Assembly (NCBI GenBank): GCA_044892505.1
Contig: CM097882.1
Span: 429,598,001 to 429,662,000, forward strand
Length of the DNA stretch: 64,000 bases
Direction of reading: 5' to 3'
From: Schmidtea nova
Taxonomy: Eukaryota
Positions 13,350-63,559 of this stretch are shown here, piece by piece. The notes under the pieces are model-generated. The model worked only from the letters and a program-made list of their open reading frames with translations. It searched no databases and was not told the DNA's origin. Made by a program: the position numbers and the translations under genes. The stretch's first letter is position 1. Each line of letters begins with the position of its first letter.

Positions 13350-13850
13350 TTAGCGTAAATCAATGCATTCGACCACATCATCTTCATACTCCATTTCTTG
13401 AGGATCCGTTGGACTGAGAGGAGAATCAAATCTTCCTTCGGTTATAGCAGGGCCCACAACAAATCGGCCAAGACTCAAAAAATCCTCGATAGGGATTGTT
13501 CCGGTGTAATAAATCCTGAATCGCCCAGGGATCTCAGTAGGCGATTCAACGAAATATCTAGACAGGTCTTTGGGATAATCCCAGTAAACGTCCACTGGCC
13601 AGGCTCGACTACCGTGCCAGGTTATTATATCTGGACTGTCTTGGTGCAGGCTGAATGGGGGCTCCCTGCTCTTCTCTAGGAATGATGCTTGGTCTTTATC
13701 GACGATCTGTTGTGCTAGATCCGTCGGGATGTTTTTCAGTTGGAGCGCCCACACCAGATAATTCTCCCTTTTTGGCGATTCTTGTTCGTGAGATCCTCTC
13801 TCTGACGTATCCTTGTTCATCACGTTTACGCGAATGCTTTCACGCTGCAT
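13350..13850 (-). CDS. ORF1 family protein of unit B, 166 aa, function unknown
   Basis: WHGSRAWP...RIYYTGTIPIEDFLSLG aligns with WYRGCASWP...VIYWGFIPASTFKELG of 61507-61983. Confidence 0.7.
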   Translation of the reverse strand: MQRESIRVNVMNKDTSERGSHEQESPKRENYLVWALQLKNIPTDLAQQIVDKDQASFLEKSREPPFSLHQDSPDIITWHGSRAWPVDVYWDYPKDLSRYFVESPTEIPGRFRIYYTGTIPIEDFLSLGRFVVGPAITEGRFDSPLSPTDPQEMEYEDDVVECIDLR

Positions 13851-15265: not shown

Positions 15266-15317
15266 ACTGACCTGAGCGCTTCCTTATATAGTAAAATCGG
15301 TGCTCAGGCAGCCAATC
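15266..15317 (-). promoter_or_regulatory. Unit B core promoter: GATTGG (CCAAT), TATATAAG, TCAGT initiator
   Basis: Same CCAAT-then-TATA order and a similar position near the 5' end as in units D and H. Confidence 0.6.
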
Positions 15318-16002
15318 AAAATTCAGCTAGTGTTTATTTGGTCCAATGACCCGTTTTTATCTATTATTTTATTTTATTCAATCATTTTATTTTATTTATT
15401 ATTATTTTATTATTTTCTCTATTAATTTCCTTTATTTTATTTAATTCTTTTTATTTCCTAATTTCTACTCAATTTCGCATTTTTTATCACTTTTTTCTTG
15501 ATTTTTCATTTTCATTTTTGTTTTAATTGTATTCCTTTTGTTAATGATTATTTTTCAACTTGTTTATTATTATTGATATATTTCTCATTAACTTTTCTCT
15601 TTTCCTAATTAATTATTTAATTCCCACTATCATTTGTTCTTGTACCAACCCAACAGTACATACCAGTTTCCTCCGTTAAATTTTTATTTTTAATTTTTTC
15701 AAATTTTTAATTAATTTTTGAACTTTAATCATCCTTTTCTGATTTTGTGTTTTACATTGATTTTCACATAGTTTTTATGCTTTTTGTTGTATTTCATGTT
15801 TATCTAAGCTTGACCCCAACAATTCCAATTATAATTTAGTGATTTACGATTAGGTAAAATCTGCGTAACGTGGTTTTTCAAACTACCTATTCCCTAATAA
15901 ATAAATATGGAAAGGTCAGGTATACTGTTAGTGGAGATTAAACGACAAACAATTTTTTTTAATTTATCTCCTGAAACACCGGGGTCAATGTTTTAATTGA
16001 AA

Positions 16003-20290: not shown

Positions 20291-20729
20291 CGTTATAAAA
20301 TAATTACACTAATAAAAATGTTTTTATTAATAAAACAGACTTAAAATAGTTTAATAGTACAATAGTTATGTTGGGCCTGCTAAATATCAAAAAACGCAAA
20401 AAACTATTGTAGTTAATTAAAACATAAAGTGAAAAAGTAGCCAATTTTAACTATTAAGGACCCAACAGGAAACTAAAAATAAACAAATAAGAAAAATAAT
20501 AAATTACCAATTATAAGCTTAGGTCCAACGTATCAGGAACCACAGAATAAGAAAAGCTAGAATGGAAAAAAACATGAAAATAATGTTAAAATAAAATAAA
20601 TAAAAATACTGTTCATTATTTCATTGATTGAATATTGATCCACGGAGTTGGAAAACTAAAATCTGGTACCAAATTTAATTAATTGATTAAAAAATAATGA
20701 AGGCCTACTATGAAGGGTGGCTTGATCCT

Positions 20730-20782
20730 GATTGGTCAATAGGACCAACTGGATTGGTATAAATACCGACACTAAACTCAGT
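20730..20782 (+). promoter_or_regulatory. Unit D core promoter: two GATTGG, TATAAATA, TCAGT
   Basis: Motifs at 20730, 20752, 20758 and 20778. Confidence 0.65.
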
Positions 20783-20914
20783 ATATTCAACATTTAACTT
20801 TTGAGATTTAGTTCAATTGTCGACTTTACTGACATTCAACTAATCAGACTTAGAATTTTCGAGCGAACGAAATCTTGTTAAAATTTTTCCGGAATTCCAG
20901 AGCAGAATTTTTAA

Positions 20915-21215
20915 TTTTCGTGGCAGCCCGAGTTGGCCAATTATCACAGCAAAAGATTTTGAAAATGGATACGCTGAAATGGATCGTGCTACTCTTGGAC
21001 GAATCGGGCCTTCCTCAAACGATTAATTATTGGGGCTTCATTCCGGCCTCCGCACTGAAGGAACTGGGATTCATCCTAATGACTGCAATCTGGCCCCTGC
21101 AAGAGACCCAGTAAAAATCATTGACCGCTTCAACCGACTCACCGAGCTCTATCTAAAAGGATCTGCAAATTCGTCATATTTTCTCATATAAAGACAAATT
21201 GTGCATCGAATGACC
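20915..21215 (+). pseudogene. ORF1 family fragment of unit D
   Basis: FRGSPSWPII.../WIVLLLDESGLPQTINYWGFIPASALKELGF...LQIRHIFSY; frameshift and stops; homologous to 61507-61983. Confidence 0.8.
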
Positions 21216-21349
21216 ATTGATTAATAAATGTATTCCCATTTTAAATTCGTTCAAGTCTAAAGTGTATAAATCTGTTCATTATAATTACCATTACCAAGTT
21301 ATGAAATAGCCGTTCACTAAAGATTTTCTTCGTTCCATTGTAGAAATTA

Positions 21350-21888
21350 GACGATGAATACAGCAAAAAATCGCTAATAACGTAGATAAACAGAGGCAGA
21401 ATCGGCAGATACGAGAGCTTCAACGACAAGTGCAAAGAATCACTGCCCAAAACGAAGTTTCGACAGAAATTGTTTGCTCCCGAAAAGATGAAGGGGCAAA
21501 TTATGAAGACAAACAGAGCCCCAAAAGCCTTGACAGAGACTAAGGTAGAACTCGACGCAGTTCAAAGATAATTACAGAGCTGCGTAAATGCGCTAGCCCG
21601 GTCGTACATTGACACCGAACTACGGGCTCTTATCAGACCAATCACGGCTCAACGATGGACAACAACCGGCGCAACTAACCCCTGAGTAGGCACCGACTGT
21701 AACGATCTGCCTACCTCGGATCCCATCGAAATCAAGCGGATCACAACTAATCTCTCGAACACTCTCACAGTCTCTAAGCGTAGAAGATTGGGGTCGAAGC
21801 AACGGCGCCGCAAGAGAGAATTTGCGTAACAGTTAGCCGCCCAAGTGGATAGGCTCAATGAGCTATCAGAACTGGATTTGCCGATTTA
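21350..21888 (+). pseudogene. ORF2 family pseudogene of unit D
   Basis: LFAPEKMKGQ...TKVELDAVQR*...RSYIDTELRALIRPITAQRW...LGSKQRRRKREFA; homologous to 62319-62903. Confidence 0.85.
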
Positions 21889-22072
21889 GAAAATTTGTAA
21901 ATAAAAATAAACCAATTGCGCTGATTTCCTTCTTGTTTATGGCAAATCCCAGATTGAATTAACTATAATTTTGAACGATATTATAGGTAACCGAAGCTAG
22001 AAAATTTAAAATAACCATTCACAAAATAATAGTAGGAACTGATAAAACTGATAGAACCGAAAAATTTAATTG

Positions 22073-22241
22073 ACAGCGTAAGACCTTTTATCGGCAGCGT
22101 GAACCTGGCGAGGAAATTTAATGGGGAGTAGTTGTAGCAGTAGAGTTTATCTGCCCATCATTTTTCCGCCACGTGCGCATTACCAACCCTGTTAATTAGG
22201 GAATAACTAGGGGCACAAGAGTGATAGTGTCGTTTTTATGT
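22073..22241 (+). ncRNA. Structured RNA family 1, copy C4
   Basis: GTAAGACC..TATCGGCAGC..GAACC; GGAAA..ATGGG/CCCAT..TTTCC; ATTACCAA, TAGGGAA loop, GGG. Confidence 0.7.
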
Positions 22242-23989
22242 AGGGATATTGGTGAGGAGTTCCTTAGTCATCATACCTTAGCTACCACCCACCCATAATA
22301 CCCAGCAGTTATTATAATTAATTATTTTGGCTAAAATAATATTTTAGAAATACCAAAGCATTCAATATTTTAGTACTTAATCGTTTGCGAATTTTTTTTC
22401 CATTGTATTTCCTGACACAGAAAATACTCTTTCGCAAGAGGTTGATGTTAAATAGACAGTCAATAATGTATTATATAAATTTTCCAGTTTTTCACTTCTT
22501 TTAGCATCATTATTACTTTCAATATGCTTAAATTCTTTGTCAATATTAAAATTCTCGTTATTACCTTTTTTAAATTTCATTAACATTTGAATGGAATTTT
22601 GTAAATTGTCAATTTATCTTGAGCTATTTCTTTTTCTGAACCTGATTGTGATTCTGAGTTTTAATGATTTTAAATTTTATCATCATGATTGCTAATATCA
22701 AGAAGAAATAATCTTTGAAACAATTGTTTTGCAAATTTTTTATACTAAATTTGGATGAATAGTTAAAAAAACTTATTTTCATTTTGTTTTGAATGATTTC
22801 CTTTATGTAAAAATATAAGCAATGACACAATTTCTTTATTTCTTCGTTTTTCATTTTCATTTTTTAATATTTCTAATATATTAAGTGATGGTTCAGCATG
22901 TATATTCTTTCGTCTTCTCAGAACATACAACATTGTTCATCCTGCTGTAATGAAATTTGCGTTGTTTTTACTTGAACATCTAGCATAGTTGGTTCAACTG
23001 CAATTAATATTTGTTAATTCGCTAAAGAAATTTTCTTGGAACCGTTTTAAACCAAGTTCATCTACAGTTTTATTTAAACAATCAATTAACTTTAAAAATC
23101 TATTTTTAGCCGATGCCAATGTGTTCCAACTTGTTATTAACATTGAATATCAATTTAAAATCCTTTCATTTTTGTTGTACATGCTTCAAAAGAATTTTAG
23201 TACGAATTTTTAAAAAACTTAATTATTTTTCGCATTTTGTATAATGCAGGTTTTATATTACAAAGTAATGTTTAATTTTCCAATATTTCTTCTATTAGTA
23301 TATCTCCATCATAAGGTGGTTCTTATTCCTCATCGACTTGATTTTCTTCATCATACTCTTCTTCTATTCAGTCTTGTCTTCATCTAATTATAGAACATCT
23401 ATATCTATATCAACCTTTTTAGACAACACTTTACATACAGTGAGGTGGATTGCATGATTATAGAACAATTGTTTTTCTGCGGTAATAATTGAACAATACT
23501 TAATCATTTTACTGAGACTGTCATTTGTTGAGGTAATAACACTCGCTGCCAAATTCTTTTAAAGCGCCCTCAACTATCTCTGGATTTTCAGCAGTACATT
23601 TTTCATTAATTGAAACTAGCCCAAAAACAAGCAACTTTGAATTTGAGCAGCGCAAAAAACAGATTCAAATATTTCTTCATCAAAATATCTGTTCACTCAT
23701 AAAAAGAAATGCTGAATTTGTTTTTCATGATTCAATAATTACATGGTTTTTCAGACTAATCTGATTTTGTTAAGTTCAAATCTGACTTTATTGAATTCAA
23801 ATTTGATTTTAACAATTTAAATTCGATTTCTTTAAATTCAATTTTGATTTCAATAAATTCAATTTCGAAATTATTATTTTAATATGTTTAATATGAAAAT
23901 ACATTAAAACACCAAAATTGGTTAGATACTAATTATAAATTATATAAATAAGTTATTTAATCTTCAATAATATTGTTAATAATGCTTCT

Positions 23990-27127: not shown

Positions 27128-28188
27128 TGTTCGTCTGTGTGCGCAGTACTTTAATTTTGGAAGAGAGAATATTTTGTAGTCTGTGTGCGCGTTGACATTT
27201 TTTGTTATTTTTGATTGCCGGTATCGCGTCTGTGTGCGCCTCACGGTTTTTTTTTGTTTATCGCGTCTGTGTGCGCGTGGGTAATTTTGGTTGTGGTTTT
27301 TGTGAAATTGATTTAATTTTTAGATTTGGTTATTAATTGAATTTCAAAAAAAAAATCCAGTTGTTTAAATATTCCAATAATTGAAAGTTGGGATTTGTTT
27401 TAAAAAGGTGTTAATGGAAGGAATTTTTGGAAGCTTCGATTTAGAATTTATGGATCAAATTATGGCAATGGATAGGTCGACAAGAAAGGCTAAAGATGAT
27501 CATTCAATACAGAATAATAATGATAATAACGCTACGCATATGCAAGGAAGTTCAGAGAATCATTACAATTATTTCAATGACAGCAATAGGGATGTTATGT
27601 CGATGAATATTGATGCTAATTATGCTAATTTCAATATGCCAATGAACATGAATGCAGATTACAGGCCAGATGGATTCGCTAAAGCCTTGTTAGTTACTCC
27701 CAAGCAGGTGGCTGTCAATGCTGCCTTGGATTCTACTAAAATGATTTCTAAATTGCGTGCTTTGCATCATTCTAGCCAACAATTTCCGGATCTAGCATAT
27801 TTCAAATGGTATGGATTAGATTTGACTAACTTCAATGTGCCAAATGACAAAGAAGCTGGAATTTTCGAATCTTCAATGTCGAAAATTAGATCCGATCTTT
27901 CTCATATATCGAGTGATCACATAAACAATATTTCTCGCAAATCAACTGACAACAAGTCCTTAGAAACAATCTCTATCATATATCAGGTGATAAATCTTCT
28001 GATTTCGGTCATTTCGGTCAACAATGAATTGACAAACAAACATTCTCCGTTTGTGCCATCTTTGGACATACTCCGGCGATTGACGGCACAAATGTTGACT
28101 TACTGTGCATTACACGAGTTGAATGGAATTATCAATACTGTTTATTGTGTGAATAAAGATAATATGGACGTTCAATTAATGATTTCCA
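27128..28188 (+). repeat. BEL 5' LTR (1061 bp)
   Basis: Direct repeat of 34382-35441; four GTCTGTGTGCGC motifs in the first 150 bp; AATAAA at 28152. Confidence 0.97.
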
Positions 28189-31100
28189 ATGGTAGCAGAG
28201 CGTGGTTCCCACTGGGGGGCCACGCACACTTTGGAAGTCTGAGAGGAATCCTGTTAGTGTATATTTTTATTAAAAAGCCTAATATGTTTTGCGTAAATTT
28301 TTATAAATGTTTTAAATTTGTAATTGGGGTATGGACCAACATTCCCTCCCAAGCGCGTTTGAAAAGGGAAGTGAAGGTTGGAATGCTTTGGCTACCGGAT
28401 ATTGTGAAAGACGGCTGCTATGGGCCCCAGCATTCTTTTAAATTCCGGGAAAAAATGGTGTCACCTGCTTATGAAGCAACATGTATAGTAAAAGATAATT
28501 CGGTATTTAAAGGTGTAAATGTTAGTAGGTGCATTGGTTATGACAGCGAAGATTTTTCTTTGAATATCAGCCGGGAAATGTTGCAACAAGATAAAATGTT
28601 GAAAGGCTTAGAACCTTTTGTAGGAATAAAGGGAGATAAAAGTAATCATAAAAAGTTCTATAATCAAATTGTTAAAAATATTAAATTGGGTAATCATGAA
28701 AACAGGGCGAATATGAATAAAATAGGGGAATTATTGAGTTTTTATTCAATAGCAAGTGGTGATGAAAAGACAAGTTTAAAGAATAATAGTTCGCGAGTGA
28801 AAGAAAAGAAAATGGAGTCAACTTTACCTTTTGTTTTGCGATTGAGACGTGGAATACAGATTTTTGTTAAGACTCTAACAGGTAAAACCATAACACTGGA
28901 AGTTGAACCGAGGGACTCTATTGAGAAAATAAAAGCAAGGATCCAAGAGAAAGAGGGAATCCCGCCTGATCAACAGAGATTGATATTTGCAGGTAAACAA
29001 TTGGTAGGCGAAAGAATCCTGTCAGACTACCACATTCTAAAGGGGTCTACTATTCATCTGGCACTGAGATTGTGTGGAGGGAATGATGAAGAGGAGGAAT
29101 TAGAGGAAGGATTGAGAAAGAAGAGGAGTGTCAAATATAGATTGACGAAATTAAGAAACAGATGGATAAATGATATGTTGGCAGAAAATGCAACACATGT
29201 CCTTGATGAATATCAGGAAGCTATGGAAAGTGCCATAGAGAGTTTTGAAAGATTGGTGGATATTAGTAAAAGATTAGGAAGGGCAGATACAACATCGGGG
29301 CTAGAAGCGGATTTACAAGAGATAGAAAATAAGAACGAGAAGGTGGAAGAGTTGATTTCGTCAAAGGCCAATCAGTCTGTTAGGTCGGATGACAGTAATA
29401 CAATTAAAGAGGTAAATGGAAACGAAACGAAGAAAAGACTAGAAAAGATGCAGAAGATACGGATCCAGATATTTGATGGACACCAGAAAGAATATGAAAG
29501 TTGGAAAGCTGCTTTCCATACTTGTGTTGATAGTGCCCATGGAGATGATGATGAAAAGATGTTACACCTTCGATCCTATCTGAAAGGTGAACCGCTAAGG
29601 CTGATCGAAAATTTAGGATTTTCTGCAACGGGTTATAAAATGGCAAAAGAAAAGCTTGATAAAAGATATGGCGGGGAAGAACGAAATTACTTAGCTGCTC
29701 TGGAAGATATCGACAGGTTCCGACCCGTTCGGGAGAATGAAATGCTGGAAATAGAGGCATTTGTTGGACTATTGGAAACGCTAGAAGTTAGAATTATTAA
29801 TAATAGACGAGAGGGCGAAATGAACAACAGTTACTTATTGAAGAGATGCCTGCAAAAGCTACCCAGCTCGCTGCTATACAAGTGGAAGAAAGATTTTAAG
29901 GAGGGAAAGGTAACCGAATGTATCCAAGATTTGAGAAATTGGTTACAAGATGAAGTCGAGCTGTTAAGATCCACAAGAGAAACCCTTTATGGAGTCGGTG
30001 ATGGCAATAGAAGAAACGATTGGAAGAGGCAGGATGGACCGTCAAGAGAATTTGGGAATCTAAGGCAAGGGAACCGGACACTTGTTGGGCAAGTAGCAGA
30101 TTGGAAGGAAGACAAGACAAACATACCAAGAGACGGATTGTTGAGCACAAAGTTGAAGTGTTGGAAATGCAAGGAAAATCATTACTTGGATCAATGCAGA
30201 GAATTCAAAGAAATGAACCCCGCAATGCGGCGTAAAGCAGTAGGAGACTGGAAGTTATGCTTTAATTGTTTAAAGTCTAATCATGTAGCGTCGGAATGTC
30301 GAAAGGCTTCATTCTGTACTAGAGAGGGGTGTAAGTTGAAACACAGTAACCTACTGCATGTGGATCAGTCAGAGTCCAAAAGGAAGGAAAACACATTGAT
30401 GTCGGCTACTAAAGATGAATTATTAAAAAAGGAGCGAAAATACCTAAGCTTGAGGACCATACCGATCTACCTTGAGCATGGAGCGAAGAAAATTAAAGTA
30501 AATGCGCTGTTAGACGATGCAAGCTCCATTAGCTACATAAGTCAGAGTATTGCAGACGAGTTGGGTCTAAAGGGGAAAGAGGAAATAGTTCCTGTGAGCG
30601 TCATCGGAGGTCATATTCAAAATATGACAACAAGAATAGTCACGATGACGTTGATAAGTCATGATCAGAAGATGAGGAAAAAGTTTACAGCTGCAGCGGT
30701 GAAGAGTGTAACCGGGGAAATGCGAGTGATAAATTGGGCAAAGGAAAAATGGCAATGGGAGCACTTAAAGGATATTCGATTTCCAATGCTTGACGAACGA
30801 CAGGTTGTGCATGTTCTTATCGGAGCCGATTATTTAGGGTTGCAAAGAGCGTTGAAGGAAGTGGATGGGAAGATGGACGAACCAATCGCTAGATTAACTC
30901 CGCTTGGTTGGACCTGTGTAGGTGGAAATACGTTGGGCGTGTCATTGACCCACCAAACCAACTTTGTTCAAACGTATTTATCCAAGGACGAGGAGTTAGT
31001 TGGACAGGTAAAGTTGTTCTGGGAAATCGAGAACTTAAAGGAGAACCCGGCGCTCTTGACCAAAAGGGATCGTGAAGTTATTAAAATTACGGAAGAAAAG

Positions 31101-31349
31101 ATGGTTAACAGAGGAATGTTTTATCAAGTGAGTTTACCGTGGAAATCTGGAAAAGAAGAATTATCAAATAATACGCAAATGGCAATGAAACGCCTAGAAA
31201 GTTTAAAGCAAAAATTAGATAAAGATCAAGAGCTGAAGAAGGAATATGAAAGAATTTTGAAGGATCATGAAAGTAAGGATTACATTAGGAGGTTAAGCGA
31301 ACAAGAAAAGGTGGGAACGAAGTGGATGTTACCTCATTTTCCCATTTAA
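27414..31349 (+). CDS. LTR-encoded unknown domain + ubiquitin-like domain + Gag + protease
   Basis: One open frame from ATG 27414. Gag [16 protein letters not shown]; knuckles [42 protein letters not shown]; protease [12 protein letters not shown]. Confidence 0.85.
28190..28207 (+). promoter_or_regulatory. Primer-binding site, initiator tRNA-Met type
   Basis: TGGTAGCAGAGCGTGGTT, 1 nt after the LTR; complementary to an ...CTCTGCTACCA 3' end. Confidence 0.85.
28854..29081 (+). other. Ubiquitin-like domain inside the BEL polyprotein
   Basis: [19 protein letters not shown]...LRLCGG; 59/76 identical to canonical ubiquitin by manual count. Preceded by [13 protein letters not shown], the tail of a previous ubiquitin unit. 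Confidence 0.95.
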
Positions 31350-34345
31350 GAAAGGAAAAAGAAATATCGAAAGTCCGGATTGTATTTGATGCTGCAGCAA
31401 AATGTAATGGAAAGTGTTTGAATGATGTTTTGGAAACGGGACCGAAATTGCAAAATGATCTTTTCGAAATTTTGTTAAGATTCAGACGGTTTAAGGTAGC
31501 CATAGTAAGCGATATCGCCGAAATGTATCTACAAATAAGAGTAGCGGAAGAAGACAGACCTTACTTACGATTTTTGTGGAAAGAGGGTGAGAAGAGTGTG
31601 CAATTTGAATTTTCAAGACTAGTTTTCGGGTTGAATACGTCCCCGTTTCTTGCACAATATGTAACCCAACAACACGCGAGAAGATATGAAAAAAGTTACG
31701 CAAGAGCGGCTGAGACCATAATAAAATCTACATACATGGATGACAGCATTGACTCAGTAGAGACGGAGGAAGAAGCGCTAATTCTTAAAGAGGATCTGAA
31801 GTTACTGTGGGCAGAAGCAGGAATGAGGGCAAGAAAGTGGATGTCAAACTTGATTAAAGTAATGGAAACAATTCCGATCGAAGAACAAGCCAAGTCGTTA
31901 ACAATAGAAGAAAATAGAACAGTCACGATGAAGACATTTGGGATGTACTGGCTCGCAACGGACGATTTATTGAGATTTGAAGGACGAACGGCAGACAATG
32001 TGAAAATCACGAAAAGAATGTTATTAAGTTGGATAGCACGTATCTTTGATCCTTTGGGAATGCTTAGTGCATTCACAATTATTGGCAAATGCCTAATGCA
32101 AGAAGCGTGGATGATGGGAAGTAAGTGGGATGATGTTTTACCCCCAGAATTACAAAAAAGAGCGAGATGTTGGATGGAAGAATGTGAATTATTGAATCGA
32201 GTAATGATTCCAAGGAGATTATTGGGGAAGCAAAGCAACCCGTGGCGCTTACATGTATTTGTTGATGCGTCTAGTACTGCCTATGCAGCGGTTTGTTACC
32301 TTAGGGAAGAAGAGAGCGCCAAGGTTAAAATGAAATTTGTTGCGGCACGAGCAAAAGTAGCTCCAGTTAAAGTAATTAGCATTCCACGATTGGAATTGAT
32401 GGGCGCCTGTTTGGGTCTAAAGTTAGCTAAGAAAGTTGGAAAGGCGTTACAATATGAATTGAAAAATGTCATGTTTTGGACTGATAGTCAAGATACCTTG
32501 CACTGGATTCGTCATCATTCAAGACTATGGAAAACATTTGTTGCCAACCGAGTGAGTACCATTCAGAACGAGACAGATGCTGAACAATGGCGTTACGTTC
32601 CTACTAAGAGCAACCCAGCAGATATAGCCACTCGGGGAATGTCGGCATCAGATCATATAGGAGATAATATGTGGTGGGAAGGACCACCTTTTTTAAAACA
32701 CTTTGAAAGAAATTGGCCAAAAACGAAATTAGATATACAGGTAAATGAAAATAGAGAAAGAAAGCAAGCGACATTTGTCATAAATTTAGAAGAAGAGCAA
32801 CCTGGAAAATATCAAGTAAACTGTTGGCAACCTGAAACCTATTCAGCGTGGAAAAGATTGCTCAGAGTAAGAGCATGGGTGCATAGATTCGCAAATAATT
32901 GTCGAAACAAAAAGGAACTCCGAAGTGGGGAGTTAACAACCGACGAAATCAAAAAGATTGAAACGATAGTAATTCGAGAGGAGCAAAATGAGATCTTTAA
33001 GGATGAGATACGAGAGTTAAAAGACGGAAGACCATTGTATAAAAAGAGCAAAATACTGAGTTTGAATCCAATGCTCGATGAAGAAGGATTACTCAGGAGT
33101 AACAGTCGAATCATAAATGCAGAGTTCATGACATTAGAAGCAAGATACCCGATAATATTAAGTGCAAAACGATGGGTGACTAGACTGATAATAAGAAAAT
33201 ATCATCAAGACAGAGATCACTGCGCCGGAACAAATCATTTATTAAGCGATCTGCAGGAAAGGTTTTGGATAACGCAACCTAAAAGAGAAATCAAGAAGGT
33301 GGAATTTGAATGCCTAATCTGTAAAAAGAGACGAGCTTCTGGACGGTCCCAGAAGATGGCTCCACTACCTGCATTTCGATTGACGGAACCATTTAGACCA
33401 TTTGGAAAAGTGGGGGTTGATTTTGCGGGCCCATTCTTAACAATCCAGGGCCGAGGAAAAGCGAGGCTAAAGAGATATGTGTGTTTGTTTACATGTTTAC
33501 AAACTAGAGCAGTGCATCTGGAATTAGTGTACGGACTAACAACGGATTCATTCATACAAGCTTTAATAAGATTCATTGGGCGACGAGGAAAACCAGTGTT
33601 GATGTTATCAGACAACGGTACTAATTTCGTGGGAGCAACGGGGGAATTGAAAGATGTGATACTCGATGGTTATAAGATAACGAAGGAGTTGACAGCTCGG
33701 GAGATAAGATGGGTGTTTAATCCGCCAGCCGGGCCACATTTCGGAGGGGTTTATGAAGCGTTAATAAAATCGATGAAAAGAGCTGTGTCAGCAATAGTGG
33801 GTAATGCGGATATTACAGATGAAGAGATGCTGACAGTAGTAGCACGGATTGAAGGATTTTTGAATGCCAGACCGTTGACGACAAAAGGGGATGATGAAAA
33901 AGGACTTGAAGTACTGACACCTAACCATTTTTTAATACCCAGATGGTCAGAAATCGAGGCTAATGAAATAGAAACTAATAAGAAAATTAATATTCAGCGA
34001 CGATGGAAAAGGACGGTAGAGTTAACCAATCAAGTATGGAATAGATGGAAAAGAGAACTTGTGCCGATATGGATAAGCAGAGCCAAGTGGAGATCAGATC
34101 AAGAAGAGTTAATAACAGGTCAGTTAGTGTGGATTTTAGATAAAGAAAGCGAAAGTGTTGGAGAATGGCCATTGGGGAAGATCACAGAGTTAATGATGGG
34201 AAGCGATGGACGGACACGGGTAGTAAAGATGTGGAGTAAAGGGAAAGAGGTGATCCGTCCAATATCTCAGCTTTGCCCCTTGGAAGTAGAAGCAGAGAAG
34301 CAAGAAAATTTTAAAGAAAAAAAGGGGTTGGCGGAAAAGGAGTAA
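31322..34345 (+). CDS. BEL Pol: RT, RNase H, integrase (-1 frame relative to the upstream ORF)
   Basis: [68 protein letters not shown]. Confidence 0.95.
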
Positions 34346-34381: not shown

Positions 34382-35441
34382 TGTTCGTCTGTGTGCGCAG
34401 TACTTTAATTTTGGAAGAGAGAATATTTTGTAGTCTGTGTGCGCGTTGACATTTTTTGTTATTTTTGATTGCCGGTATCGCGTCTGTGTGCGCCTCACGG
34501 TTTTTTTTGTTTATCGCGTCTGTGTGCGCGTGGGTAATTTTGGTTGTGGTTTTTGTGAAATTGATTTAATTTTTAGATTTGGTTATTAATTGAATTTCAA
34601 AAAAAAAATCCAGTTGTTTAAATATTCCAATAATTGAAAGTTGGGATTTGTTTTAAAAAGGTGTTAATGGAAGGAATTTTTGGAAGCTTCGATTTAGAAT
34701 TTATGGATCAAATTATGGCAATGGATAGGTCGACAAGAAAGGCTAAAGATGATCATTCAATACAGAATAATAATGATAATAACGCTACGCATATGCAAGG
34801 AAGTTCAGAGAATCATTACAATTATTTCAATGACAGCAATAGGGATGTTATGTCGATGAATATTGATGCTAATTATGCTAATTTCAATATGCCAATGAAC
34901 ATGAATGCAGATTACAGGCCAGATGGATTCGCTAAAGCCTTGTTAGTTACTCCCAAGCAGGTGGCTGTCAATGCTGCCTTGGATTCTACTAAAATGATTT
35001 CTAAATTGCGTGCTTTGCATCATTCTAGCCAACAATTTCCGGATCTAGCATATTTCAAATGGTATGGATTAGATTTGACTAACTTCAATGTGCCAAATGA
35101 CAAAGAAGCTGGAATTTTCGAATCTTCAATGTCGAAAATTAGATCCGATCTTTCTCATATATCGAGTGATCACATAAACAATATTTCTCGCAAATCAACT
35201 GACAACAAGTCCTTAGAAACAATCTCTATCATATATCAGGTGATAAATCTTCTGATTTCGGTCAATTCGGTCAACAATGAATTGACAAACAAACATTCTC
35301 CGTTTGTGCCATCTTTGGACATACTCCGGCGATTGACGGCACAAATGTTGACTTACTGTGCATTACACGAGTTGAATGGAATTATCAATACTGTTTATTG
35401 TGTAAATAAAGATAATATGGACGTTCAATTAATGATTTCCA
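34382..35441 (+). repeat. BEL 3' LTR (1060 bp) with the same open frame (ATG 34667, stop at 35467 in flanking DNA)
   Basis: Direct repeat of the 5' LTR. Confidence 0.97.
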
Positions 35442-39302: not shown

Positions 39303-39878
39303 ATGAATCCAGTGCAACAGTTAGAGGAAATTCATAAACTGTTGATCGAGAACGCGAAACACAATAAGAAGGTCGACGCACGTTTTGCCGATCTAGAAGC
39401 TAAGGGGTTGCCCAACACAGACGCGCTCCAGCTGATGACCAGTGGAATGGAGAAATTTCGGGCCCGCTGTCGAGAGATGGAAGCGACCTGGTCCGACAAA
39501 GAAACAGTGGACCGGTTAAGAAAACAGAATTAAATGCTCATCCAACAAGCTGCCGAAGACGCAAGGAGATTGCGCGCATTTCGAGTCTCAATGCGAGAGC
39601 AGGAGCTCGTGATTGAGAAATTGAGGGTAGACAGTGGCATCATCTCCGCCATACTACCGAAATCTCAGCCTCCACTCCAGGAATTGTTCCGTGTGAGAGG
39701 GGAGGAAGAAATCGCATCTTCATCAGCAGTTCCAACCAAGCCAAAACTATGGAGGCCCAGTAAAGGGGCCAGAGCCAGGAACAAGCGTTGCCAAGAAGCG
39801 CGAGTGCTAGGCCAGTTAAGAGTGGAGGCCTCGAAAATCATTAATTTTGACATTGATTTAACAAGTCCACGCATATGA
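39303..39878 (+). pseudogene. Coiled-coil ORF with basic C-terminus (191 codons, one in-frame TAA at 39531); probable distant ORF2
   Basis: Two track ORFs abut in frame. Length, architecture and position before the RNA motif match ORF2; sequence similarity is weak. Confidence 0.55.
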
Positions 39879-40076
39879 TTTGATATTGTATTAAATGTTG
39901 TAATATGATTATAAGTTTTCTCTTATATTGTTTCTACTATTTGTTTGTTTGAACAAGGACAGATAAAAATAAGAGATTTAATAAGTTAAATAATTAATAA
40001 ATAAACAACGGTTTGGTGAAAATATTCAAATGGAGACCTTGTATTGGAAATCCAAAGCGATAGAGCGTTTGATTTA

Positions 40077-40245
40077 AAGGGACTAAAGGGGCATTAAACC
40101 TTCTATCGGTAGCCCTTGGACCCAGGAGATATTCGGTCAATCATAGTTTCGTATTGACGACGCTCACTGATTGCGAATACCCACCCATTTGTTGCATTAC
40201 CAACGTTACCTAGTGACGGGCAACTAGATGGTTATTTCAATGTTT
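40077..40245 (+). ncRNA. Structured RNA family 1, copy C5
   Basis: All conserved blocks present. Confidence 0.75.
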
Positions 40246-41305
40246 TGTATGTTGAGTTGTTGATACGAGATTTTATTTTTACTTACAACACGAAAATAGA
40301 TGAAAATTATTTCTGATTCCAAATGAAATAACCACTTGAAACAATAGTCCAGATATCATAGCAGAATAACTTATAAAATTTCCAATTGTCAGGGCAAATT
40401 CCAACGAGAGAATCAATGAATTCTAAAGTTATAACGTAAAAGGCTGGATAATTTAATCTTATCCCACTTACGATCTTGCTTGTCGAACGGCCCATATCGA
40501 GAGCTTCTTTGAAGGGCTGGCATCCAAAACTAGTATCTAAATCATGAATGAAATATCTTAAAGGAGTAAAACTAAATCAACTTACCAATAAATTCAGTTG
40601 AAATTAGGGGGAATCCCATTCTAAAAATATAAAAATAATCAATAATTATAATATACAAAATCAAATTCGTATAATATAAATTAGCCAATAGGAATCCGCC
40701 AATTTTTCAGTGGCGTTTATATAGCTTTCTTCTTTTTCGGGGGAACGCCGATGATTTTGATGGGAACGCGATCAAGATCGGATTTCCTAGTTTGAGTTTT
40801 GACCTAAAATTTGGAAATAAACATAAAATTCGAAAATTTGAGAAATACCGATGTTAAATTATTTGGAGAATTTATATTGTTGCTGTTGCTAAGGCCTCGG
40901 CAAATTTTTGAAAATTAAAAATTAAAGTTTTAACAAGATTTTAATTGTATATATAAAGCAAGATAGACAATAGGATTAAAATACAAATTAGGTTTATCTA
41001 AATCTTCAATATGGAAAACACAAAAATAGTTGTACAATCTTGAATATAGTAGTAAATTTGATAAAATTAACAGTGATTGAAAATCCCCGAATATATGCAT
41101 TTTTACAGGAATATTCAATCCCCGAATTGAGTTGCGATGATATGCTTGAGCACGAGCTTACGAATAAAAATGGATGCACGAAAACTCCTGTGTTTTGAGA
41201 TAATACCGTGTATAATGGCTGATTGCGAGAAATTAATAAATTTTTATCGATGAAATTATTTCATTTTGCTAATTTAAAAGAGATAACTACAGTTAAATTG
41301 TTAAG

Positions 41306-41541
41306 AAGGGACAAAATGGGCATTAAACCTTCTATCGGTAGCCCTTGGCCCAGGAGATATTCGGTCAATCATAGTTTCGAATTTTCGACGCTCACTGATT
41401 GCGAATACCCACCCATTTGTTGCATTACCAACGTTACATTGTGACGGGCAACAAGATGGTTAATTCTAATGTTTTATGTGTTGAGTTGTTGATGAGAGCC
41501 ATAGTAACGTCAAGGTCATATTGACGATCAACAACCAACCA
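41306..41541 (+). ncRNA. Structured RNA family 1, copy C6, plus terminal hairpin
   Basis: All conserved blocks, then GTTGTTGA...GTCAA/TTGAC...TCAACAAC. Confidence 0.75.
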
Positions 41542-42769: not shown

Positions 42770-44400
42770 TGGTGTATTGGTAGTTGATTTTATTTGAACT
42801 CTGTTTGGCTAGGGCAATAAATGTTTACACTAACACAAAATGGATTGTCTCCGCTCTGGTACCCGTGGAATTTCCCTAGAATTATCCCACATTGGTGCTG
42901 TACCATACGGTGCATACCAAGCGAACATGTGAGCGGCCTGAGTGGTCACTACTACTCGCTTTCTAGAGGTTTCTCGTCTTCTTTTGAAAATACTCCACTC
43001 AACCGTATCCTGCTTTCCATCTATGTTGGACTGCCAATCAATCTCCAATATTTCTCACTCATCACACTGATTGAAGCTCTTGAATTCCATAGCATCTCAT
43101 AAAATCCATTTATTTTAATCGTACTCCACCTTCTGTCATCATCCTTCTTAAACATCACATCCTTTACAAAATTTCGTTTTTTATACTCATCTACTGTCTC
43201 GACCCTATTGACGAAATGTAGACAACAGGGTCTTGGTTTTTTTGAGTCTCAACATTATGTATGACTGGGGCTATCAATTCTTTTGATCTGATACACTCTT
43301 CGTTTCAGTCTTTGTACATTACCTCTTGATTTCGCTAACAAATTGCAACTTCTAAATGAATGACCTTCTTTACCGCATATTAAGCATATGTCCTTCAAAG
43401 GACACTCAAATCGTATATGGTCACTTTGTCGACAACAAAAGCATTGACCAGGTCTTAACCTTTCTTCTGCTGGCTCAGGTAGACCACAACATCTATTTTA
43501 AACTTTCCTTGCAATATGTTTCATTGAAACTAACGGTGGTGGTCTACGATCCGTAGGTGTCCTCTCATTATATTATTCACTCTATCAATTTGTCTTTCGC
43601 GTCTTTCATTTCTATTTTGATAACTTTATTCTGGTTGACGACTTGAACACATTCTATTATTTAAAGATGTTTTTAGTCCATTGCTTCTGTTTATCTTGAG
43701 CAATGTTTGCATAGGTTGATTTCACTACTACCTGAACTTCTTCAAATCGTTCTTTTGCATCATAACCTTCCCGTGCCTCATATACCTTTGCTAAATTTCT
43801 AATTTCTTCCCTCGTGATGTTAGCCTTCGTTTATATATATTTTCTTTCAAACGGTCGTTCCGAACTCTGCTGCACAAAATCAGTTCAACAATATTTTCTT
43901 TTGAAATTCCACAGTCAAAAACTTCGTCAACGAGCTTCTTTACTCGTACCTCTAATGTAAAAAATCTTTCATCGTTATTTTATTTAACTGCTAAAAAGTC
44001 ACAAATCTTATCCATAACGGACTTTTTTTTGGTAAATGTTTCATTAAAGCGTTCACGAGCTTTTTCATTCGTTGTGGCAATGTCCTTAAATTCTTTCCAG
44101 AGAATAGATGCCTCTTCAGACAATAATTAATCAAAAATATTTACTAAATTGAGATCGCTAAGTAGCATCCAATCTTCAATATCCTTGAGCTATTTCTCTG
44201 CTTCTATCGTGCTTCGGCCGTCAAATCTTCTGACATTAAAATTCAAAATGTCTTTTGCCTGTTTAGGCAAAGATTCCATAATCATCTTTTTATGCTGATT
44301 TCTTGTCACCACGTGAATCGGCTCGATTTTTTCGGCGTGGTCGCCAATTACAATTTCTTCATAATTCATAATAACAATTTGTCAAATTAAAAAATATTTT
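42770..44400 (-). pseudogene. Decayed Gypsy-like gag-protease
   Basis: VRRFDG...KDIEDW (gag-like); MLWNSRASISVMSEKYWRLIGSP (degenerate DSGAS); many stops. Confidence 0.55.
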
Positions 44401-48901: not shown

Positions 48902-49320
48902 CTACAAATCTAAACATATGTGTTCATTTTGTAATGTCGTCAATCCCCAATCATTCGCATACTCTTTCTTTTCTTGTTTCTTACCTTTTTCACTTTTCCA
49001 GACTTGCATTTTTTCTTGGCCATTCTTAATTCTGTCCATTCCTTTCGATTGTCGTTTGCCGGGATAAGGTAGAATTTTTGATACTAGCGGAACTATTGCT
49101 TTTTCCAACTGTTTATCAATGTAGTGCACGTTGAGTTCGTGCTTAATTTCCTTCATCTCTAACTTCGTGGTTTGGATTTCCGCGTGGTTTTTCTGACCTT
49201 ACTTCAGTAGTAGATTGATGAGCTTCTTTGCAGCATTCATCTTCATAGGAGCGAGCAACGTGGCTACGAGTTTCCTACATTTATTTATTAATCTATCCGT
49301 TCTGCCTTGTACCATTCGTT
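48902..49320 (-). pseudogene. Diverged ORF2 family copy
   Basis: LLAPMKM...TTKLEMKEIKHELNVHYIDKQLEKAIVP resembles LFAPEKMK...TKLELDAVQREL...SYIDSELRALIRP. One stop; lies upstream of C9. Confidence 0.6.
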
Positions 49321-50074
49321 TATCGTTCATAGCAACATTCAACATTCATTTGAGCGATTTTGATATCCATTTTCTCAAAAATATGGTAGATAAATCTTAA
49401 ACTCTCACTTTTTAAGGCTCAATTCACATCATCCCTTTAAAGAAAGATTTCATTAAATAAATTAGAATTCTTAAGTTATATGAATGTGTAAAATTTTATT
49501 GACTTGAATAATAACATAAAATAAAACAAACGACAAACAAAACATAAAATCGATAATAATAAAAGGTTTATAACTGCCTAAATGACATCATTGTGGAAAA
49601 CCCGTACATGAATAATTTGATCATGGAAGACAGTTAACAGCAAAAGATTGATATTAAATATTTTCATTTAATGGGAATGTAAAACAACCAACATATAAAT
49701 TAAAATTGAGTGTCTCGGGTTAGAGAGTATATACTATATTTATATTATCTCCTACTTCCGAAGAAATCGGTGGTTTGTTAATGGGCTTTTTGTTCTGGGC
49801 CCTTTTGATGATGATAATCCGATGGTTATTGTCACTTGAATAGTTTTCGGTAGTTGATGGGCCAAAAGGAATCTCCTTAATTTATTACGTGGAAGCCCCG
49901 ATAAAATAACATGTTTTGGTATTTGGGACAGTCGTGCCAACTTGACTAATAGTTTTAATTGCCCGGTTGTTTTAATAATGTTTAGAAAAAATTATTACTA
50001 AAATAATAGCTTGATAAAAAATAACCTAAATTATAATAATTAATTTCATGATAATTACTTGGGATAACATAGTA

Positions 50075-54548: not shown

Positions 54549-55422
54549 ACCCCAGAAGCCAACAAAACGAACCAATCAGCTTCGCTTAATTTTAATTCTC
54601 TTCTAAAATTGTTAATATAGATTTAATGATTAAATTCGATTTTATTCTAGACAAAACAAAAGGGGTAGTTCTGACTCGACAATGTAATATATTTTAAATT
54701 AGTCCATACGCTTCATAATTCAAATAAGGGTAAAAAGGGAAATCCAAGGTTTAAAATTAATAAAATTTCTAAGTAATTTTGTGGTTATCGTTGCTTAGGC
54801 CTCGGTGGTAATTTAAAATTTTAAAGTCAAATTTTTGAAAAAAATTTTAATATAATTTTTACAGGATAGGGGGACGATAGAATTAAAATTTAAACCAAAT
54901 TTAATTAAATTTTAAAATTAAAGTTAGAAAATGGGAAAAACCACGAAAATGATAGTCATTCAAACCAAAACAACAGTGATTGAATATCCCCGAATATATC
55001 AATTTCTAAAGGAATATTTGATCCCCGAATTGAGTTGCGATAATATGTTTGACTATGATTTTGTGAATAAAATAAATGTGCGAAAATGCTTGTGTCTTAG
55101 GAAAGTATAGTATATAGTGGTTGGATGGAATAATTGATTTTATTATGATTTAGATTTTGATCAGAAAATGTGAGGGTCAATTTATATATATTTATTTGGA
55201 TTTAAGATTAGAGAACCAAATGCTAGAACTCTTCGAGAACTTAAGTCATCTTCAAAATGATTGAATTGATTTTGTTTTGCCTGTGGCTGGTATACATTTA
55301 CTTTGACATTATTCTTGAATGATGTAGGTTAATTTGATGTTAATAAATTTGTATTGATGTAGATTATTTATTTGAATTGTCGATTAAAATCTTATTGAAT
55401 GCTTATAGATAAATCGTTGAAT

Positions 55423-55661
55423 AAGGCTCTCAAATGGGCATTAGACCTTCTATCGGTAGCCCTTGAACCCATTGAGATGTTCTATCAATCATATTTTCGA
55501 TTTTTCAACGCTCACTGTTTGCGGACATTCACCCATTTGTTGCATTACCAACGTTACATTGTGACGGGCAACAAAATGGTTTAATTTAATGTTTTATATG
55601 TTGAGTTGTTGATGTGAGCCATAACAACGTCAATGTCATGTTGACTGTCAACAACCCACTA
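55423..55661 (+). ncRNA. Structured RNA family 1, copy C7, plus terminal hairpin
   Basis: All blocks present; 9-bp closing stem GGCATTAGA/TTTAATGTT with G-U pairs. Confidence 0.75.
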
Positions 55662-60155: not shown

Positions 60156-60522
60156 TTACTGTTGGGCCAGCCAAATAGAGGGAAAAGTGAAATAAAAGTA
60201 GAATAATTAAAACAAAAAGAGAAAAATAAGGTAAAAAGGGGAATATTAATTTGTTAAAAGAAAAGAGTAATATAGTTAAAATATAGATAAATTAAGAACA
60301 AACTATAAATAAAAATAAATGAATTTCTAGATATTAACGGGCCCAGGAGACATCTAAAAACAAACAAAATACAAATAATAATAATTAAAACCAAATAAAA
60401 GTACTTGTTATTGAATAATTGTTTTTGAAACCCGGACTTCCAAGGAAGAATACAATCTAAAAAATAAAAATTAATTAGAATCAAAAACAATAATTAAAAC
60501 CACCATGAAATCGGCCAAATCC

Positions 60523-60568
60523 GATTGGTCAGTCTAGATCAGACTGATCAGTATAAATACTGATCAGA
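60523..60568 (+). promoter_or_regulatory. Unit H core promoter: GATTGG and TATAAATA, the TATA inside the palindrome CTGATCAGTA-TAAA-TACTGATCAG
   Basis: Direct reading; similar position to the promoters of B and D. Confidence 0.65.
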
Positions 60569-61506
60569 CTTTGGATAAAACAGACTTAATACCTAATCTT
60601 ACAACGTCAGTTGAGAGTGTAAAATTTAGCTCACTAATCAAATAGACTTTAAATTCTAGACGAACCGATCGAATCAAACCCAGACGAATTAGGTATTTTG
60701 GTTTCTGTATTATTTTATTCATGATTGTGTCATTTGTTTTGTCATTTATCTATTGATCTAATTATTTATGTGTTTATGCGTTCATGTGTCGAAATTTGTT
60801 ATATGAATTATATAAATTAAACGTTATTGTGATTAGACTCAACATTAAAATATATAATGATCATATTAATTTTGCGCCGTTGGGAGCTTTAGGTTCCCAA
60901 GGTGTCAGTCCGTGGCGTGGTGCTCGAGGGCTCCACACACGGTAAAGTAATAAATAACCAAATATGATTTTATTAGTAGTGGTCGAGATTTGCACATGGG
61001 ACACCCAACAAATCCGGGGAATTATTTTCCGATCATTTTAACTACAGAGGAGGCGATTTTCGGATAAAGTCTAACGATGTAGGATAAGAAAGAATTTTTC
61101 GACTGTGAGGAGGCACAATTTTTCACCCTCACCACAGCACAGTTGCTAAATAAACATCTAATAAACCTTAGAAAATTAGGTCGACCGCATTTGATATGAA
61201 AGGGGCGTTTTCCGAGTAAGCTAGGAGATATATGACGTGAGAGAGTTTCCGTTTTGGGATACCAATGTTTCGATATCCACGCAGACAAAACACCAATTTT
61301 CGACTATATTATTGATCGTAAACGAATAAATCTAAGCAGACACGAGAGTAAGGTACACCGTAACGAGCAACAGTTTTTCTTGATTTCAGTTAAGGTCTAA
61401 GGAGAAGACAAATAATAAAGGCATCACGATGAGAGATAACATCTACTATAATTAATCATTGATTTAAATTGTTAACTATTATAAAATTCAGCATCATTCT
61501 AGTATC

Positions 61507-61983
61507 ATGACTAAACACAGATTCACCATCAAAAAGCGACGAGAACGAGCCCGAATTAGCCCATTAAAGCCGGCTCCTTTTGAAATTTTGCAACAAATCC
61601 ATCAAAAAATGTGGGCATGGCGCCGAGAGCTTGTAACCGCATGTCCATTTACAGTATGGGACCATCCACGGCATCACGTATGGTACCGGGGATGCGCTAG
61701 TTGGCCAATCATTCCAGACGAGGAATTCGAATCATGGCACGCCGCCTGGTTCGTTCTGATGTTGGATAAGCGGGGATTCCCGAACTGTGTAATTTATTGG
61801 GGGTTCATTCCAGCCTCTACATTCAAGGAATTGGGATTCACTTTCCATACAGCAATACGACCCCTTCGGGAAGCTGAGAGGATCCGTCTCCAGCAAGCCT
61901 CACCCAACTCCACTGGAATCAGCTCAAATTTGCAAATCAGATCGATATTTTCGTACCGAGGAAAAATGACCGAAGATGAATAG
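61507..61983 (+). CDS. ORF1, 158 aa, Trp-rich, function unknown
   Basis: Open frame followed by AATAAA; homologues in units B and D. Confidence 0.75.
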   Translation: MTKHRFTIKKRRERARISPLKPAPFEILQQIHQKMWAWRRELVTACPFTVWDHPRHHVWYRGCASWPIIPDEEFESWHAAWFVLMLDKRGFPNCVIYWGFIPASTFKELGFTFHTAIRPLREAERIRLQQASPNSTGISSNLQIRSIFSYRGKMTEDE

Positions 61984-62318
61984 TTGAATAAATGGCCACC
62001 TGTTTTGAATTAAATAAATGTTTTAGAGGAATCTGAAGTGTTGCATTTTGTTAATAGCGCTATAATGTAGATGAGAAATTTATTAACCTCTAGTGCTGTA
62101 GATGTTACCGTCAGTAGGACATTCTTTCACTAATGTAAAACAGTTGAGCAAAATTTTGAGCCTCCAATCATTAAATAGAAAAATAATTTTGGTGTAAAGA
62201 TTTAATACTTGAACACAGTAGTATGCATTTTTGCTCCTAAATCGTAAATAGTCACTTAATTAAAATGACCTTGTTGATAGGTTCTCCAGCGAATTTATCG
62301 TTATAATATTCAGACATC

Positions 62319-62903
62319 ATGCCGATTTCAGAAAACTCGAAGAGAATCATGGGACAAATCCAAGATAGAAAGTTGAGGGACCAGCAGAGGCAGATCAAGC
62401 GACTCACGGTAGCAAATGATGAACTGAGAGCGAAGTGGTTCTCACCCGAGCAAATGAAGGGTCAATCGCAAAAACTCGAGCGAATGCAGGAAGCACTGGC
62501 CGCAACTAAATTAGAGCTTGACGCCGTCCAGAGAGAACTACGAAATTGCCTGAATGCAGTAACAAGAAGTTATATCGACTCCGAATTACGAGCGCTAATC
62601 CGGCCGATCACGGCTCAGCGCTGGACACAAAGTACTTATCAAGATGTCGCTTGCGGGACGGAAGATGGTATCATCATGGCCCCCACTCTTGTAACGGACG
62701 AATTGCCTACTTTTCACAGTGATCCATCGAGAACAATTGCGTCAGCACTTGTCCTAAACCCACAGCTTCGAAAACACCGAATGGGATCGCGACAGCGTCG
62801 GCGTCGCCGAGAATTTGCGAAGCGCCTGGACGAGCAAATCCACCACTTAAACTCCTTAACCGAAGCAGAGTTGATTCAGGAGATTAGTCTGGAGTTTGCG
62901 TAG
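62319..62903 (+). CDS. ORF2, 194 aa, coiled coil with Arg-rich C-terminal motif, function unknown
   Basis: Open frame followed by AATAAA at about 62946; homologues at 12554, 21350, 48902 and possibly 39303. Confidence 0.8.
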   Translation: MPISENSKRIMGQIQDRKLRDQQRQIKRLTVANDELRAKWFSPEQMKGQSQKLERMQEALAATKLELDAVQRELRNCLNAVTRSYIDSELRALIRPITAQRWTQSTYQDVACGTEDGIIMAPTLVTDELPTFHSDPSRTIASALVLNPQLRKHRMGSRQRRRRREFAKRLDEQIHHLNSLTEAELIQEISLEFA

Positions 62904-63188
62904 GAAAACATCAATGTCAAATAACAACCTGTTTTTATTATTTTAATAAAAGTGTTTTTGTGTAAATTTTGTCTCTCATCGTACGAGTTCACTAAATAAA
63001 ATAAAACAACATAAGTAATTCGTAGAAATAAAAAAATCGCGTCATAAAACCTACACCGACCGTTACTTAGCAGCGAGAGCTTTCGTAGGCTCGTAGAACA
63101 GCGAAGGAGAGTGTCATTGGGAAAAGCGTGTGATGGATCCTAAGGAGATGTAGTATAAGATTCAGTGGGCGACCATCCATAGAATGTA

Positions 63189-63357
63189 AATGCGTAAGAC
63201 CTTCTATCGGCAGCAAGGACCCGAGGGAAGATAAATGGGGAGTAGTTTTGGCAACAAAGCTCACCTGCCCATCATTTTTCCACCACCGTATGCAGTACCA
63301 ACTTGACTAGTAGGGAATAGTCAAGGGCATACGCGTGTAGTAGTCATGTTATGTATG
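63189..63357 (+). ncRNA. Structured RNA family 1, copy C8
   Basis: AGTTTTG-GCAA-CAAAGCT (GNRA); CGTATGC/GCATACG; CTTGACTA/TAGTCAAG; TACCAA/GGG. Confidence 0.75.
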
Positions 63358-63559
63358 GTTATGGGCGTGGAATCCCTAGTATACGTACTCATCAATAGTC
63401 GTTCAATTAATGATTAACTATTTATTTGAATTACTTAAAACCCAACCATAATCCCAGCATTACTATGCCACCTGCCAGGATCGAGCAAGAGTGGTATAGT
63501 AAAGATGGTTTGTAAAAATAGATTTATTTTCTCAAGTTACTTATCCGACCAAAGCTTTC

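Follow-up and report, generated by a model that had tools for sequence, protein, structure and literature searches.

Is the protein encoded by ORF2 of this locus the ligand of the structured RNA that lies just downstream of it? The locus is part of a 64,000-nucleotide stretch of Schmidtea nova DNA (GCA_044892505.1, contig CM097882.1, positions 429,598,001 to 429,662,000 of the forward strand; hereafter the window, whose numbering is used throughout). A sequence-only reading of the window had proposed such a pairing, by analogy to Rev and the RRE. The wider question is how the 28-kb multigene RNA of a Burro-type element avoids being spliced, reaches the cytoplasm, and enters particles. For this the locus offers two testable parts, namely, a strongly selected orphan protein with an arginine helix and an RNA of about 200 nt that covaries and has no Rfam family. 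If ORF2 is the ligand of the RNA, the pair would represent a Rev-like system of independent origin outside retroviruses; the RNA merits description whichever partner binds it. The literature covered yielded no description of ORF2 or of the RNA, nor did we find a Rev-like system for gypsy elements in print.

ORF2 is a conserved gene with a constrained arginine helix

62319 to 62903, plus strand: ORF2, 194 aa, open (from the sequence)
62766 to 62825, plus strand: Arg-rich motif of ORF2, residues 150 to 169 (from aligned proteins)

ORF2 combines the motif FSPEQMK, long helices, the segment YIDSELRALIRP, and the basic stretch GSRQRRRRREF. Among 9,078 candidates from the genome searched (1.25 Gb, AT-rich), at least 150 scored copies had 88 to 100% identity. 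Comparison with a sister subfamily yielded a dN/dS ratio of 0.14 (0.057/0.401) for the entire frame and of 0.04 (0.020/0.473) for residues 151 to 194, the linker giving 0.133/0.158; pairs within other families ranged from about 0.07 to 0.30 where dS was measurable. Copy number and dN/dS rule out a chance frame or an artifact, and ORF2 is a real gene under purifying selection. Its Arg helix is the most constrained part: positions 152, 154, 160, 161, 164, and 169 are occupied by R or K in 90 to 100% of 20 aligned ORF2 proteins.

AlphaFold2 modeling with 20 sequences (mean pLDDT, 74.5; pTM, 0.33) predicted helices at residues 5 to 40, 43 to 90, and 96 to 108, a disordered linker at 107 to 151, a basic helix at 157 to 179, and a short end helix. 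The long amphipathic helices in this model are of a type suited to oligomerizing. ORF2 likely binds RNA. ORF2 had no Pfam match above the cutoff; sequence and alignment queries of 5.8 billion proteins, limited to near lengths, returned no relative, and the ORF2 profile matched none of 1.84 billion representatives. The best score in the Atlas was 0.88. Nothing was retrieved at an E value of ≤0.001 from PDB sequences, PDB folds, or viral folds, where the best fold match (Z, 6.7) involved generic helices, and these comparisons of sequence and fold brought up nothing that resembles Rev, Rex, or delta antigen. The libraries searched, which are poor in animal transposon proteins, thus yielded no relative of ORF2 from beyond this genome.

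One of the five window copies is intact

20369 to 22307, plus strand: internally deleted solo LTR with GTTA duplication, broken ORF2 (21350 to 21889), and RNA (22064 to 22262)
12083 to 15655, minus strand: solo LTR of a diverged family with GTAC duplication
39303 to 40262, plus strand: type II Arg-rich ORF (39303 to 39878) with one in-frame stop, and RNA (40077 to 40262)
48902 to 49336, minus strand: decayed, weak ORF2-like remnant (13 bits with both profiles)

The sequence-only reading had listed four clear copies of ORF2 and a probable one. Those at 62319, 21350, and 12554 were indeed clear and that at 39303 was probable, but the copy at 48902 scored only 13 bits against either family profile and is not clear; sequences of its type occurred twice in the genome. 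The sole intact copy is 62319. Copy 21350 retains 47% identity, with a frameshift and stops (138 bits against the family profile), and copy 12554 retains 32%, with stops (134 bits); the LTR of the latter also carries an ORF1 homologue (13350 to 13850), the broken ORF2 (12554 to 12955), and an RNA (12170 to 12366). Copy 39303 belongs to a second family (type II) of the same layout, which hhalign related to the first with a probability of 24% and an E value of 8e−4. An intact two-LTR element of this type II family has 5.6-kb LTRs. The type II element at G000:C2:409981750-410009000 (L157, L158, and L084) spans 27 kb, with 5.6-kb LTRs at 99.9% identity; most of its gag-pol is missing, and its RING, TRAF, and several accessory ORFs are open.

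The four motifs that the copies were said to share are not common to all of them. FSPxxMK is exact in two of five, YIDxxLxxxIxP occurs in three, and a GSRQRRRR-type tail occurs in two. The further statement that each copy lies within a few hundred base pairs of an RNA was borne out for four of the five, with the RNA 200 to 290 nt downstream, and failed for 48902, near which neither nhmmer nor two covariance models detected an RNA, although a much-decayed copy may remain.

ORF2 and the RNA belong to the same LTR of a Burro-type element

The segment at 60160 to 63459 (plus strand, 3,300 bp) has TG and CA ends, read directly, and is bracketed by a 4-bp TTAC target duplication (60156 to 60159 and 63460 to 63463), which together identify it as a solo LTR. 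It is 87 to 95% identical to both LTRs of three two-LTR elements and matches one such LTR end to end. These elements are about 28.5 to 28.6 kb long, with LTRs of 3.2 to 3.3 kb that are 98.6 to 100% identical, a primer site after the 5′ LTR, and 4-bp target duplications. ORF2 copies often occurred in same-strand pairs spaced by 25 kb, and three such pairs correspond to the LTRs of these elements. Hit pairs in three of five regions, and the outer repeat of a fourth, were considered as LTR pairs and rejected as segmental or tandem duplications.

Pfam searches of the element interior identified gag, CCHC, mononegavirus-type fusion, protease, RT, integrase, and ankyrin domains, as well as separate RING and MATH/TRAF genes (MATH_2, Ank_2, and RING models). 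The fusion-protein (env) domain (PF24664; E value, 1.5e−69) is located between zf-CCHC and protease. The polyprotein is interrupted in all three elements read. The host of the ORF2 LTR is a complex, env-bearing Ty3/gypsy element of the Burro type, a kind of giant, retrovirus-like element already known from flatworms, and ORF2 and the structured RNA are parts of one and the same LTR.

60552 to 60559, plus strand: TATA box (inferred promoter), kept in four of four family LTRs
60939 to 60948, plus strand: predicted major splice donor ACG/GTAAAGT, present in four of four family LTRs
61507 to 61983, plus strand: ORF1, 158 aa, the first of the genes in the LTR, preceded by an acceptor-like TAG
62311 to 62313, plus strand: CAG, predicted splice acceptor that precedes the start of ORF2 by 5 nt (from the sequence)
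62945 to 62950, plus strand: AATAAA, a possible poly(A) signal downstream of the ORF2 stop (from the sequence)

The start site, splicing, and poly(A) site of this LTR are predictions from such signals. The position of the TATA box is also kept in a diverged family, and the 150-nt bin containing it is 100% identical to that of another subfamily. The LTR has a single strong donor-like site, at 60942; both ORF1 and ORF2 are preceded by AG sites, and in one full element YAG lies at most 5 nt from the ATG of five of seven genes. AATAAA, a candidate signal, also follows ORF1; the hexamer is common in the AT-rich LTR. The structured RNA occupies most of the last 280 nt. Two exact probes gave 0 matches to spliced genomic copies of the element, and no GT..AG joints were present among those listed in four unlabeled contig sets, which are uninformative on expression and carry what we take to be transposase adapter sequence.

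ORF1 has 46 homologous ORFs among the fetched loci and no Pfam or Atlas match; its predicted model (pLDDT of about 41 [41.5]) was too poor for a fold search. The ORF1 family (61507 to 61983 and 13350 to 13850) conserves a G..WP..F core across three LTR families. ORF1 was also considered as ADP-ribosyltransferase-like, but the lack of conservation at the His/Arg position led us to reject this assignment.

Other mobile elements are present in the window. A BEL/Pao element (27381 to 34345) has a first long frame that starts with Cpn60, HSP90, and ubiquitin pieces before gag-like domains, and its first 1 kb is repeated at 34382 to 35441. An intact 317-aa ISXO2/IS1595-type transposase, presumably Merlin-like, lies at 2603 to 3556, with terminal inverted repeats near 2498 to 2576 and 3610 to 3692. 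Between 5400 and 11200, frames of the Penelope-like RT and GIY-YIG-like kinds are present, and repeats, both inverted and direct, surround the four masked stretches.

Compensatory changes support the helices of the RNA

63180 to 63375, plus strand: conserved structured RNA near the LTR 3′ end (covariation in two split alignments)
41306 to 41491, plus strand: RNA copy of an LTR lineage without ORF2 (like 55424 to 55611)

The RNA consists of a hairpin with a UUCUAUC loop, a GRACCC linker, a long hairpin with a G-G pair and a U/CAC loop, and a third hairpin with CAKUA and AA bulges. In the 19 copies of the type I group, 88.8% of 722 cells are paired, compared with 35 to 41% in slid controls, and 22 of 38 pairs have changed on both sides, compared with 0 of 500 shuffles that reached this count. 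The 18 type II/III copies show 88.5% pairing and two-sided changes in 12 of 41 pairs, a count also reached by 70 of 500 shuffles; both structures were drawn from the tested sequences, so that the slid control is inflated, and relatedness inflates the shuffle test. A first, mixed alignment retained only 9 pairs, and the covariation evidence comes from the two split alignments. The RNA is real, its helices being supported by compensatory changes. Between subfamilies that agree at 65 to 74% in the spacer, the 150-nt core bin of the RNA shows 97% identity. Single-sequence folding was unremarkable (z, −1.3 on both strands and −2.4 for the 41300 copy).

All 19 of 19 type I-group RNAs have a G-G opposition (a purine-purine pair in an internal loop), which we did not see in the alignment of types II/III. 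The RNA matched no Rfam family, and we know of no motif common to it and retroviral psi. The window contains nine copies. An even sample of 400 kb from the whole genome contained 13, which extrapolates to about 40,000 genomic copies.

The UUCUAUC loop resembles a tRNA T-loop. In 72 of 74 cells its U-C can pair with a G-R further downstream, which would form a small contact of the pseudoknot type. In the third hairpin, a 5-nt bulge, two C-G pairs, and the AA bulge are conserved in all families. At 42814 to 43012 (minus strand), an RNA copy and LTR end directly follow the gag-protease of another gypsy element, the rest of the LTR being absent.

Linkage explains the co-occurrence of ORF2 and the RNA

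The sequence-only reading had suggested that genome-wide co-occurrence and tree congruence would bear on the pairing. The association turned out to be one-sided, and the independent occurrence that this reading had named as refuting was observed by half. ORF2 is nearly always accompanied by a downstream RNA (69 of 70 search loci, in four families, and 6 of 7 loci in the random sample, two loci of the 48902 family having neither part), whereas the RNA often stands without ORF2: only 6 of 13 random copies have ORF2 upstream and 7 lack it, as do three whole LTR lineages. Likewise, no ORF2 lies within 300 nt of five of the nine window copies (for the copy at 578, the upstream DNA available was 598 nt). 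Within 1.5 kb upstream of the RNA, searches that very distant ORF2 relatives would escape returned no ORF2 match in 20 type III loci, 17 X-type loci (of 20, one had no RNA and in two another copy was taken), or 23 type V loci besides the query locus. The type V LTR is complete, at about 1.3 kb, in four of eight loci examined, and all five 40-kb regions with a type V LTR and primer site were free of ORF1 or ORF2 matches above 8 bits.

Congruence was similarly unspecific. Over 31 loci, ORF2-RNA distances correlated at 0.80, but ORF1-RNA distances did so equally (0.77), and ORF1-ORF2 distances at 0.85. ORF1 thus tracks the RNA as well as ORF2 does, which linkage explains; the shared LTR places ORF2 just upstream of the RNA and accounts for both proximity and congruence. 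Co-occurrence therefore no longer counts as evidence for a pair, although binding in trans is not thereby refuted. The ORF-less lineages look nonautonomous or decayed and could thus be served by ORF2 in trans; they do not separate a packaging signal from an RRE.

The ORF2-less loci have features of their own. An abundant ORF-less LTR family of about 1.3 kb (L186 to L209) keeps an RNA very like that of the window. One two-LTR copy of about 13 kb (G000:C1:437032001-437047000) shows 88% LTR identity and has gag remnants only. A short candidate frame recurs upstream of ORF2-less RNA copies (window 41040 to 41195 and about 54950 to 55110), with at least 150 matches, mostly broken. At L192 and L194, an open 300-codon WD40-repeat frame, presumably SMU1-like, is located about 630 nt upstream of the type V RNA in a 5-kb tandem duplication.

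The RNA may be a genome signal separate from ORF2

The reading that we tentatively favor, with a probability that falls somewhat short of even, is that ORF2 is an LTR-borne accessory gene and the RNA is a separate signal of the unspliced genome RNA, for which Gag, RT, or a host factor is a more probable reader than ORF2. Transcription would start behind the TATA box, near 60580, and a short leader would end at the 60942 donor and be spliced to acceptors before ORF2 and most other genes. The RNA would then be placed behind the donor, behind the AATAAA of ORF2, and directly before the tRNA primer site; from its position behind the predicted donor and the AATAAA, it would occur only in unspliced genome RNA, as expected for a packaging, dimerization, or primer-initiation domain. 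In retroviruses, too, packaging signals are found downstream of the major donor, within the 5′ leader (PMC9142903). ORF2 would oligomerize via its 90-residue helix, its Arg helix may serve nuclear import and broad RNA binding, and the protein may chaperone or regulate transcripts of the element in trans. The LTR anatomy, the primer site, the Burro domains, the retention of the RNA by ORF2-less lineages, and the failure to find a conserved export signal in ORF2 all argue for this genome-signal reading. Moreover, the RNA core is common to families whose ORF2 proteins barely align, which points to a partner more conserved than ORF2. Against it, the constraint on the Arg helix (dN/dS, 0.04) exceeds what a bare import signal needs.

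A Rev/RRE-like pair, which that constraint would suit, is the strongest competitor, even if we regard it as rather unlikely. ORF2, made early from a spliced message, would oligomerize on the RNA via its Arg motif and export the unspliced 28-kb genome RNA; in a variant, it would shield the genome RNA from splicing and early polyadenylation. Either way, ORF-less elements would use ORF2 in trans. The helical Arg-rich motif and the oligomer-type helices of the ORF2 model are compatible with such a role, and the G-G opposition, invariant in the type I group, is also found in RRE stem IIB (PMC4488727). A single donor with acceptors before five of seven genes implies an export problem, the RNA would be intronic, and it follows ORF2 in 69 of 70 loci. 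Other observations speak against the pair. Rev-like proteins are defined by an Arg motif, multimerization, a CRM1 export signal, and specific binding (PMC3856414 and PMC4488727), of which ORF2 shows the Arg motif, as a sequence feature. None of six leucine-rich export-signal pattern classes was found after the Arg motif in the window ORF2, in its sister subfamily, or in the four 12554-family proteins scanned; atypical signals are missed by such patterns. Other ORF2 families contain matches, but shuffled tails match as often (52 to 89%), and no conserved export signal was found. No G-G opposition was seen in type II/III RNAs, the searches above brought up no resemblance of ORF2 to Rev, Rex, or delta antigen in sequence or fold, and linkage accounts for co-occurrence and congruence.

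The env-bearing element, the splice-type layout, the constrained Arg helix, and the G-G pair give the comparison with Rev a context that it did not have in the sequence-only reading. The broader proposition that a gypsy element evolved its own Rev/RRE outside retroviruses appears doubtful to us. In such a system, an oligomeric Arg-helix protein encoded in the LTR would bind the pseudoknotted RNA at the 3′ end of the LTR and thereby license the 28-kb unspliced genome for export, and either component could come in trans from solo LTRs, of which there are tens of thousands.

Quite improbable, in our estimation, is a third arrangement in which host factors bind the RNA as a CTE-like export or poly(A)-control element and ORF2 has an unrelated function, for example as an LTR transactivator or a suppressor of piRNA silencing. 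Retention of the RNA without ORF2 would fit, as would the AATAAA sites of the 5′ LTR, which genome RNA must pass, the use of host NXF1 for export by simple retroviruses (PMC3856414), and the repression of Burro RNA by PIWI in planarians (PMC8532177). However, the RNA matched no Rfam family. As to a bZIP-type activator, the basic region of ORF2 lies far C-terminal of the long helix. This is not the arrangement of bZIP proteins.

Finally, a variant HDV-like self-cleaving ribozyme that trims the transcript, with ORF2 as a mere neighbor, is very improbable: the 5′ part of the RNA can be drawn as P1, a 3-bp P3 closed by a loop of 7 nt, and a 2-bp P1.1-like pairing (intact in 38 of 38 cells of one alignment and in 34 of 36 of the other), but P1 has only about 4 bp, P1.1 changes are one-sided only, pairing in the putative P2 reaches 72% and includes no two-sided change, and no Rfam HDV-like family matched. 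The L3 G and the catalytic C are named as important in HDV-like ribozymes (PMC3774820), whereas the sixth loop position has no G in 37 of 37 rows, no conserved C precedes the putative P2 strand, and the rows scored contain C-N-A-A in 1 of 17 and 4 of 15 cases.

Comparison with known systems

MMTV sag and HIV nef are protein genes inside LTRs that are expressed by splicing, and ORF1 and ORF2 resemble them in their location and predicted spliced expression. MMTV sag and HIV nef lie in U3, ahead of the promoter. ORF1 and ORF2 are instead behind the predicted TATA box, so that a solo LTR could express them.

Burro and GYPSM1 are giant Ty3/gypsy elements of planarians (PMC6431247). The element described here is like them in its length of about 29 kb, in its one huge polyprotein region with gag, CCHC, a fusion protein between gag and protease, RT, integrase, and ankyrin, and in its separate MATH/TRAF and RING genes (PMC6431247). 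The available part of that description names accessory ORFs, but neither LTR-internal genes nor a conserved LTR RNA.

With HIV-1 Rev/RRE, HTLV-1 Rex/RxRE, and MMTV Rem, the locus shares a small protein with a predicted helical Arg-rich motif and oligomer-suited helices, a structured RNA with a G-G opposition, and a complex splice-type layout (PMC4488727, PMC9142903, and PMC3856414). In Rev, the Arg motif is embedded in a helix-turn-helix and accompanied by an export signal for CRM1 (PMC4488727, PMC3856414, and PMC9142903). The ORF2 model instead has a 90-residue helix and a 45-residue linker, and no conserved export signal was found in ORF2. The RRE resides in env; the window RNA lies at the LTR 3′ end of an element that is not a retrovirus.

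Retroviral psi offers the other comparison. The HIV-1 psi comes after the primer site, outside the LTR, whereas the window RNA is inside the LTR, before the primer site (PMC9142903). Like psi, however, it is a multihairpin RNA behind a predicted major donor and near the primer site, and it is kept by elements that lack the genes (PMC9142903).
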